From: a virus | Lineage: Duplodnaviria; Heunggongvirae; Uroviricota; Caudoviricetes | IMG/VR virus record: IMGVR_UViG_2639763139_000004 | Direction: 5' to 3' (one strand) | DNA: 11,635 nucleotides | Part shown: in pieces, positions 826 to 1,136 of the stretch | Layout of the letters: each line of letters begins with the position of its first letter | How positions within the stretch are numbered: position 1 is the stretch's first letter | Made by a program: the position numbers and the translations under genes | Notes under the pieces: generated by a model | The model's input: only the letters and a program-made list of their open reading frames with translations | Databases searched by the model: none | What the model was told of the DNA's origin: nothing

Positions 826-900
826 TGGAGCGGGCAGCGGGAATCGAACCCGCATCATCAGCTTGGAAGGCTGAGGTAATAGCCATTATACGATGCCCGC
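826..900 (-). tRNA. tRNA-Gly (anticodon UCC)
   Basis: Reverse complement GCGGGCATCGTATAATGGCTATTACCTCAGCCTTCCAAGCTGATGATGCGGGTTCGATTCCCGCTGCCCGCTCCA folds as a cloverleaf with anticodon loop CUUCCAA, GGTTCGATTCC T-arm and encoded CCA. Closely resembles E. coli glyT from memory. Confidence 0.9.
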
Positions 901-903
901 ATA

Positions 904-979
904 TGGTGCCGACTACCGGAATCGAACTGGTGACCTACTGATTACAAGTCAGTTGCTCTGCCTGCTGAGCTAAGTCGGC
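904..979 (-). tRNA. tRNA-Thr (anticodon UGU)
   Basis: Reverse complement GCCGACTTAGCTCAGCAGGCAGAGCAACTGACTTGTAATCAGTAGGTCACCAGTTCGATTCCGGTAGTCGGCACCA. 7-bp acceptor stem, anticodon stem ACTGA/TCAGT, loop CUUGUAA, encoded CCA. One A:C mismatch in the T-stem (52:62). Confidence 0.8.
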
Positions 980-981
980 GC

Positions 982-1058
982 TGGCCCACCACCGAGGACT
1001 CGAACCTCGCACCGTCAACTTAGAAGGTTGATGCTCTATCCGGATGAGCTAGTGGTGG
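982..1058 (-). tRNA. tRNA-Arg (anticodon UCU, reads AGA)
   Basis: Reverse complement CCACCACTAGCTCATCCGGATAGAGCATCAACCTTCTAAGTTGACGGTGCGAGGTTCGAGTCCTCGGTGGTGGGCCA. Perfect acceptor, D, anticodon and T stems; loop CUUCUAA; encoded CCA; unusual C1:G72. Confidence 0.8.
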
Positions 1059-1059
1059 T

Positions 1060-1136
1060 TGGTGGCCCTTGCTGGACTTGAACCAGCGACCTGGCGATTA
1101 TGAGTCGCTCGCTCTGACCAACTGAGCTAAAGGGCC
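1060..1136 (-). tRNA. tRNA with CAU anticodon, probably tRNA-Ile2 (ileX/ileZ-like, AUA decoder) rather than Met
   Basis: Reverse complement GGCCCTTTAGCTCAGTTGGTCAGAGCGAGCGACTCATAATCGCCAGGTCGCTGGTTCAAGTCCAGCAAGGGCCACCA. Anticodon loop CUCAUAA; overall similarity to E. coli ileX from memory. Ile versus Met identity cannot be settled from sequence alone. Confidence 0.8.

Follow-up and report, generated by a model that had tools for sequence, protein, structure and literature searches.

Transfer RNA (tRNA) genes lying downstream of the antiterminator gene Q have been known in lambdoid phages since the 1990s, and it is with such loci that the element described here is compared: a cassette of four tRNA genes, Ile2-like (anticodon CAU), Arg (UCU), Thr (UGU) and Gly (UCC) in order of transcription, which lies in an 11,635-nucleotide (nt) stretch of DNA from a virus of the Caudoviricetes (IMG/VR record IMGVR_UViG_2639763139_000004; this whole stretch is termed the window). 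The tRNA cluster of phage T4 is likewise tightly packed, gives multimeric precursors that are cut by host RNase P and is thought to supplement codons favoured by the phage. T4 differs, however, in being virulent, in carrying eight tRNAs, some of them without an encoded CCA, and in its genomic context, and its cluster has no sequence relationship to the cassette. The ileZ-argN-argO genes of Shiga toxin (Stx) phages (933W, Sakai Sp5 and phage 2851) occupy the same place as the cassette, after Q, PR′ and tR′ and before the stx or lysis genes, and are read in the same orientation. Their first gene is the same phage Ile2(CAU) gene, differing only in the D-loop and in one base of the T-loop, their second slot holds the same tRNA body with a C1:G72 pair, and the same upstream element (TTGCAG, 17 nt, TATTAT, 9 nt) and a terminator after the last tRNA are present there as well; over positions 982-1153, which comprise Ile2 and Arg, the window shares 88-90% identity with Stx and PPompW phages. 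In the window, however, the argN-type body bears UCU and not UCG, a separate argO (G1:C72, UCU) is absent, a Thr(UGU)-Gly(UCC) pair is added, and the tRNAs are followed by 680 nt without a recognisable gene and then by a holin gene, not by toxin genes.

A second related type, Ile2-Lys(UUU)-Thr-Gly, which is found in PhiR47_1, in PPompW-type and in other E. coli prophages, has the same four slots, spacers of 1-3 nt and the same location between Q and holin, and in PhiR47_1 its Thr and Gly genes are identical to host thrU and glyT; it differs from the window in slot 2, where UUU stands in place of UCU. When IMG/VR was searched with the core of the phage Ile2 gene, 120 contigs were obtained, whose compositions as called by ARAGORN were Ile2-Arg(UCG)-Arg(UCU) in 57, Ile2-Arg(UCU) in 29, Ile2-Lys(UUU)-Thr-Gly in 14 and Ile2-Arg(UCU)-Thr-Gly, the type of the window, in 6, the UUU type being the commoner of the last two; the remaining 14 were partial or of other composition. 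SfI, Sf6, ST64T, PS3 and P21 have Asn-GUU and/or Thr-UGU tRNA genes downstream of Q, that is one or two tRNAs including Asn; Ile2, Arg and Gly are lacking. A bias towards ACA codons in the phage relative to Shigella was reported together with the Thr(UGU) gene (PMC3636060). The cassette of the window is homologous to ileZ-argN-argO and combines parts of it with parts of the Ile2-Lys-Thr-Gly type, the gene content that is not shared making it a compositional variant; a literature search for this four-tRNA combination found no paper.

The reading that we hold to be likely is that the four genes are functional and form a cassette of the lambdoid kind, with Q on one side and the lysis or stx genes on the other, which is transcribed from its own promoter as well as by late read-through and which serves codon supplementation. 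As such the cassette is a known and ordinary phage feature, and these genes are already annotated in public genomes by the Prokaryotic Genome Annotation Pipeline (PGAP). What is added is modest, namely a clearer view of how the cassette is built, with two apparently fresh copies from one host operon beside one phage-only lineage that seems to change its anticodon. The cassette brings along a conserved promoter-like element and terminators on both sides, and if this promoter is active, the prophage tRNAs add to the tRNA pool of the lysogen, which is relevant to rare-codon virulence genes in Shigella, enteroinvasive E. coli (EIEC) and enterohaemorrhagic E. coli.

An earlier note, made from the letters of the window, had placed four tightly packed tRNA genes with encoded CCA at positions 826-1136, and ARAGORN gives exactly four in the window, at the same coordinates and with the same anticodons. 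All of them lie on the minus strand, which was left unstated there, and the order in which they had been named is the order of transcription. Their matches to the Rfam family RF00005, whose gathering score is 29 bits, are far beyond chance (E-values from 3e-10 to 4e-14), and with 56-70 bits, full cloverleaves and CCA ends in all four, pseudo-tRNAs or chance matches are ruled out. PGAP labels tRNA-Ile, -Arg, -Thr and -Gly in a 99.5%-identical stretch of the prophage of E. coli FDAARGOS_944. The genes end with A-CCA (Ile2), G-CCA (Arg), A-CCA (Thr) and U-CCA (Gly) and are separated, in order of transcription, by 1 nt (A), 2 nt (GC) and 3 nt (TAT); the C1:G72 pair that had been pointed out in the Arg tRNA is found in its acceptor stem (CCACCAC.../...GUGGUGG-G-CCA).

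ARAGORN labels the CAU gene as Met, and this assignment, to either the elongator or the initiator, is ruled out by similarity: the gene is identical to ileY at 71 of 77 positions and to ileX at 69 of 77, as against 54 of 78 for elongator metT/U and 48 of 78 for initiator metZ. Its acceptor stem (GGCCCUU.../...AAGGGCC) contains C4:G69 and C5:G68, pairs that are reported determinants for TilS. Position 27:43 is A:C in the phage gene, where the host has G:U.

Capture from the host had also been suggested in the earlier note, and this holds for three of the genes and fails for the fourth. The Gly gene, described there as glyT-like, is in fact identical to K-12 glyT (75/75), the Thr gene matches K-12 thrU at 74 of 76 positions with two U-to-C changes, both in the D-loop, and the Ile2 gene would have been captured less recently (71/77 to ileY), whereas the Arg gene shares only 58 of 79 positions with argU. 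The A:C mismatch noticed in the T-stem of the Thr tRNA is seen in the Rfam alignment as A52:C62; since thrU carries the same mismatch, it is inherited, and its interpretation as a sign of decay is ruled out. Both glyT and thrU come from one host operon, thrU-tyrU-glyT-thrT-tufB, to which the likeness of the cassette's Gly and Thr genes points as their source, although the cassette lacks tyrU and the ~200 nt spacer as well as thrT and tufB, and its flanks are unrelated to those of the operon. The TAT spacer between Thr and Gly corresponds to the first nucleotide of the thrU trailer followed by the last two of the glyT leader, where host homology stops; this hints weakly that the pair derived from thrU-tyrU-glyT-thrT through loss of tyrU, the probability of such a spacer by chance being ~1/64.

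For the Arg(UCU) gene, origin as a captured argU is ruled out by the low identity (58/79), by its accessory spread and by the core genome, in which no match exceeds ~79% (the best extends over 57 nt). Instead, the gene is a member of a phage-borne tRNA lineage, here termed argN-type. The same body bears Arg(UCG) in Stx phage 2851 and in Sakai Sp5 (argN2), and UUU, labelled "tRNA-Lys", in PhiR47_1, STEC309 and many IMG/VR contigs. Being found in 1833 of 5426 complete E. coli genomes, the lineage is accessory. In an alignment of ten distinct members, 94.8% of cells conform to the cloverleaf and C1:G72 is kept in all ten, compensatory changes occur at two pairs and every substitution in the acceptor stem keeps pairing; a fully paired T-stem is found only in the Arg gene of the window. 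The alignments point to a single lineage whose slot-2 tRNA switched its anticodon between UCG, UCU and UUU from phage to phage. The UUU variants (about 14 IMG/VR contigs) have C33 instead of the universal U33 and, in addition, an A51:C63 mismatch in the T-stem, and they may be decaying copies or else Lys tRNAs that work despite an odd anticodon loop.

Some phage tRNAs are known to replace cleaved host tRNAs, and one may ask whether the cassette serves counter-defence, its products replacing host tRNAs hit by anticodon nucleases or toxins (PrrC/PARIS-type, colicin D-type or tRNA acetyltransferase toxins). The strong divergence of the Arg body from argU would fit this role, as would the unusual C33-bearing Lys(UUU) variant in slot 2 of related cassettes. 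However, the anticodon loops are those of the host in all four cases (CUCAUAA, CUUCUAA and CUUGUAA compared with ileY, argU and thrU, and for Gly the whole tRNA compared with glyT), so the signature of nuclease evasion is absent, and for Gly and Thr, 100 and 97% identical to host genes, only dosage would be gained. Counter-defence is thus disfavoured and we regard it as highly improbable.

Upstream of the cassette lies a sigma-70 promoter-like element, whose TATTAT hexamer is separated by 9 nt from the mature 5′ end of tRNA-Ile2 and which the promoter scan reports in an alternative register. Of 82 unique upstream sequences, which represent 11 unrelated distal contexts, 78 keep TATTAT and 79 the 17-nt spacer length; the spacer itself and the sequence farther upstream of the two hexamers diverge among relatives. 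Identical hexamers and spacings are found in Sakai Sp5 between tR′ and ileZ2, and differential RNA sequencing (dRNA-seq) of this Stx2 phage by Sy et al. mapped, in the lysogen, a primary start site between tR′ and the tRNAs which drives the tRNAs (PMC7547250). By this comparison, the cassette of the window probably has an active promoter of its own. Two terminator-like hairpins, each followed by a T-run, lie between the last tRNA and the holin, and a terminator between the last tRNA and holin or stx2A is also present in PhiR47_1, CFSAN029787 and Sakai Sp5. On the other side of the cassette, a hairpin between the Q-like gene and the promoter-like element is a low-confidence candidate for a tR′-type terminator; relatives have a stem of at least 5 bp at its place, a substitution at window position 1232 relative to FDAARGOS_944 weakens it, and stronger terminators occupy the same relative place in other contexts.

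These data bear directly on the proposal that the tRNAs are supplied strictly late and in a Q-dependent manner, i.e., that the cassette has no promoter of its own, is made only from the antiterminated late transcript and serves only the translation of virion and lysis proteins. Its position downstream of the Q-like gene, its co-orientation with the lysis genes and the codon enrichment found in late genes (see below) are in keeping with this proposal. It is opposed by the TTGCAG-17-TATTAT element that recurs 9 nt upstream of the first tRNA throughout the 82 sequences and 11 contexts, by the primary start site mapped in the Sp5 lysogen (PMC7547250), and by the terminator that recurs after the tRNAs and ahead of the lysis or stx genes, which fits a unit that is to be stopped without Q, and it therefore seems unlikely to us. 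The suggestion of the earlier note that the phage supplies tRNAs for its late genes is borne out as far as codon enrichment is concerned; its restriction to the late stage is not, as the promoter-like element, the flanking terminators and the Sp5 dRNA-seq imply expression that is probably not only late and Q-dependent (PMC7547250).

Under the reading that we favour, that of a self-promoted unit also read through late, the cassette would be insulated as a transcription unit and driven by a constitutive promoter of its own, active in the lysogen as judged by homology, and upon induction it would also be traversed by Q-modified RNA polymerase that started at the late promoter. Processing of tRNA precursors by RNase P and 3′ exonucleases is well established in E. 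coli, and the multimeric precursor would be handled accordingly, host RNase P cutting each 5′ end and 3′ exonucleases trimming trailers of 1-3 nt to the encoded CCA. Another match to the sigma-70 consensus inside the cassette, TCGGCA-16-TATAAT (912..885, minus strand, 10/12), comprises the 3′ end of the Thr gene and the D-loop of the Gly gene and is regarded as accidental. The same match recurs in related cassettes, and it would start transcription within the Gly gene.

The anticodons suggest that Ile2(CAU) would read AUA once host TilS has formed lysidine, that Arg(UCU) would read AGA and weakly AGG, Thr(UGU) ACA and others, and Gly(UCC) GGA and GGG. These cognate codons had been called rare, and rightly so, since in the host sample used here (40 K-12 genes and six flanking host genes, 17,287 codons, ~58 kb) AGA, AUA, ACA and GGA are the 2nd, 5th, 9th and 14th rarest of 61. 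Late genes were counted in the annotated prophage of FDAARGOS_944, which is 99.4% identical and comes from another strain (6,749 codons), the late genes of lambda, which lacks tRNA genes, were taken as control, and Fisher tests were applied. Per 1000 codons, AUA is used 11.0 times in the prophage late genes, 3.3 times in the host and 4.8 times in lambda late genes; the corresponding values are 5.3, 1.0 and 2.3 for AGA, 12.7, 5.3 and 8.2 for ACA, and 14.8, 7.3 and 9.2 for GGA, so that the four codons sum to 43.9 in the prophage, 16.9 in the host and 24.5 in lambda. The excess over the host is significant for each codon (p < 1e-6), and so is that over lambda late genes (1.6-2.3-fold, Fisher p = 1e-4 to 0.012). 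When all 61 codons are ranked by enrichment over the host, AUA, AGA, ACA and GGA take ranks 3, 2, 5 and 6 in the prophage as compared with 14, 3, 11 and 21 in lambda, and rank 1 in the prophage belongs to AGG, which UCU reads weakly. The nin-region genes of the window itself use each of the four codons 10-13 times per 1000.

Such enrichment in late genes is the pattern expected if the cassette offsets scarce host decoders. The cassette would add decoders that are scarce in the host to a prophage whose genes use the respective codons two to five times more than host genes, and, as far as the correlation with codon usage goes, it would ease a translational bottleneck for phage proteins and possibly for cargo proteins. 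In phage SfI, the Thr(UGU) gene has been explained by the same codon-supply argument (PMC3636060).

Several observations weigh against this reading. The host sample is small for a codon test and the counted prophage is that of another strain; AT-richer mobile DNA is generally rich in A-ending rare codons, so that part of the codon match is expected anyway; and lambdoid phages with two or three tRNAs were reported to be neither better nor worse codon-adapted than those without (PMC4631060). As to transcription, no convincing -35/-10 pair that could serve as PR′ was seen between the stop of Q (1326) and the tR′-like hairpin, and this hairpin, with its stem of only 4 bp, scores below the threshold of the terminator scan. 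Among cassette-bearing E. coli genomes the Gly gene is degenerated in six of ten and a 1-nt deletion affects Thr in one Shigella copy, which implies that at least the host-identical members are dispensable. Finally, the prophage copy in the window is defective, so the benefit for late genes is not realisable in this copy now. Its holin gene is cut at 55/56 by an end of IS600 that occupies positions 1-55, a multi-copy repeat with up to 43 sites per E. coli genome which adjoins the IS600 transposase; what is left corresponds to the first 30 amino acids (aa) of the 71-aa holin of FDAARGOS_944, followed by divergence, and the lysis genes of this copy are thereby disrupted. The ydaV/DnaC-like replication gene aligns end to end and without gaps (99.2%) with the intact 248-aa protein of FDAARGOS_944 and contains an in-frame stop near 5812-5817, where the window has A at 5817 and FDAARGOS_944 has T.

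How widely is this combination of genes spread, and how well is it kept? The intact four-gene version was found in only four complete E. coli genomes, and six more (CFSAN029787 and five further genomes) have a decayed Gly copy, in which the anticodon is changed from TCC to TAC, A38 is replaced by G, the 3′ acceptor strand has lost 1 nt and CCA is missing; this copy, which PGAP labels tRNA-Val, is probably a pseudogene. One sibling Gly copy shows a compensatory change from C6:G67 to U6:A67. The decay of Gly in siblings means that not every member of the cassette is under strong selection in lysogens. Comparison of 12 distinct cassette-bearing sequences, in which 1-5% of tRNA columns vary as against 59-82% of flank columns, shows the cassette to be a conserved block in mosaic surroundings; its 311 nt show 0 substitutions between the window and FDAARGOS_944 where ~1.2 would be expected, which is uninformative. 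The history of the cassette itself looks mosaic too, with Ile2 and the argN-type slot common to Stx phages and the Thr-Gly pair seemingly captured from the host.

The junction between Arg and Thr was found, among species-representative genomes, only in Shigella flexneri SFBU1023 and in "E. coli" ECMA0423, with three copies in each, and this distribution raises the possibility of a domesticated module of lysogenic conversion, i.e., that the cassette is kept for the bacterium as a constitutive source of AUA, AGA, ACA and GGA decoders for AT-rich virulence genes (ipaH and the invasion plasmid) of Shigella and EIEC. The triplicate copies reside inside degraded prophages; at least two of the three in SFBU1023 lie in degraded or rearranged prophages with truncated Q, holin or Rz. 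Moreover, the prophage of FDAARGOS_944 bears the type III secretion system effector gene ipaHb beyond its tail-fibre genes (13271-15097 of the stretch examined), ipaHb and a DedA-family gene together use AUA 21.9 and AGA 15.5 times per 1000, and an architecture with its own promoter is likely. The copies nevertheless decay, as the Gly genes and the Thr deletion show, the Shigella copy most like the window being the very one with that deletion, and the sibling prophage of CFSAN029787 carries at the same end sitABCD (4431-7880 of the stretch examined) and not ipaH. A general linkage between cassette and ipaH is accordingly unsupported, and a module kept for the bacterium is in our opinion rather improbable, though it deserves more credit than counter-defence. 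A broader proposal joins these elements: an autonomous, self-promoted and terminator-insulated "tRNA moron", domesticated in Shigella and EIEC with up to three copies per chromosome in decayed prophages and expressed in the lysogen for AUA/AGA-rich virulence genes (ipaH, invasion plasmid), whose slot 2 gains new specificities (UCG, UCU, UUU) by anticodon switching. This proposal we judge doubtful, on a par with strictly late Q-dependent supply.

The window belongs to a lambda-like (lambdoid) prophage of the Shigella/EIEC type, and its positions 56-8922 are 99.4% identical to the lambdoid prophage of FDAARGOS_944. In that prophage the order of genes, given along the minus strand of the window, is replication and nin-region genes including a QueH homologue and hok/sok, DUF1367 (NinB-like), DUF1364 (YbcO-like), DUF1133, the four tRNAs, a class II holin, the lysozyme RrrD, Rz, terminase, head and contractile-tail genes, and ipaHb at the far end. 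The cassette had been placed between Q and the lysis gene, and its surroundings agree with this: the Q-like gene, the tRNAs and the holin start follow one another on the minus strand, a layout that is also found in FDAARGOS_944 and Sakai Sp5. The coordinates of the Q-like gene were taken from the PGAP annotation of its FDAARGOS_944 homologue; against the Pfam family Phage_antitermQ it scores 25.1 bits, slightly below the cut-off. Between the last tRNA and the holin (147-825, ~680 nt) PGAP annotates no gene, and four open reading frames of 61-92 aa in this interval have no PHROG matches, nor do the three of them that were scanned have Pfam matches; in sibling prophages the same gap measures only ~290 nt.

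Table 1. Features of the cassette and its surroundings, with positions in the window
Feature	Position	Strand	Basis and remarks
tRNA-Ile2-like, CAU, 77 nt	1060-1136	minus	ARAGORN ("Met" label, cat); Rfam RF00005, 70.5 bits; first in cassette
tRNA-Arg, UCU, 77 nt	982-1058	minus	ARAGORN (tct); Rfam RF00005, 56.4 bits; C1:G72, discriminator G73
tRNA-Thr, UGU, 76 nt	904-979	minus	ARAGORN (tgt); Rfam RF00005, 69.8 bits
tRNA-Gly, UCC, 75 nt	826-900	minus	ARAGORN (tcc); Rfam RF00005, 64.9 bits
Sigma-70 promoter-like element	1146-1174	minus	-35 TTGCAG (1174..1169), 17-nt spacer, -10 TATTAT (1151..1146)
Hairpin CCGC-UUUAU-GCGG + U8, candidate tR′-type terminator (low confidence)	1225-1246	minus	Read from sequence, seen in fold; between Q-like gene and cassette
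Terminator-like hairpin + T-run	548-567	minus	Terminator scan, 7 pairs, tail TTTTTGTACC; downstream of cassette
Strong terminator-like hairpin + T-run	177-213	minus	Terminator scan, 10 pairs (6 G-C); just upstream of holin start
Q-like late antiterminator, 184 aa	1326-1880	minus	phrog_753 "anti-termination protein Q-like", 9e-78; Pfam DUF1133, 5e-105
S21/P21-type class II holin, 5′ fragment, 30 codons	56-146	minus	Pfam Phage_holin_2_1; first lysis gene; start at 146
ydaV/DnaC-like replication gene	5413-6156	minus	
QueH-family epoxyqueuosine reductase homologue	3725-4390	minus	Pfam PF02677, 1.9e-65; phrog_3217; nin region
hok/sok type I toxin-antitoxin locus, complete	3342-3554 and 3492-3667	minus	Hok/Gef Pfam, 9.8e-23; sok Rfam RF01794, 117 bits
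isrK Hfq-binding RNA and C4 antisense RNA	10772-10848 and 10873-10960	plus	59.6 bits (isrK) and 76.7 bits (C4)

Some further loci of the window may be mentioned (Table 1). The nin region encodes, a few kb from the tRNA genes, a homologue of the QueH-family epoxyqueuosine reductases, whose link to the cassette is not evident, as queuosine modifies tRNAs with GUN anticodons and the cassette contains none. There is also a hok/sok type I toxin-antitoxin locus, which is complete. On the plus strand, the Hfq-binding RNA isrK adjoins a C4 antisense RNA, both upstream of a region ~85% identical to that of the Rha-family regulator gene of FDAARGOS_944, and together isrK and C4 constitute an antirepressor control module of the P1/P7 type.

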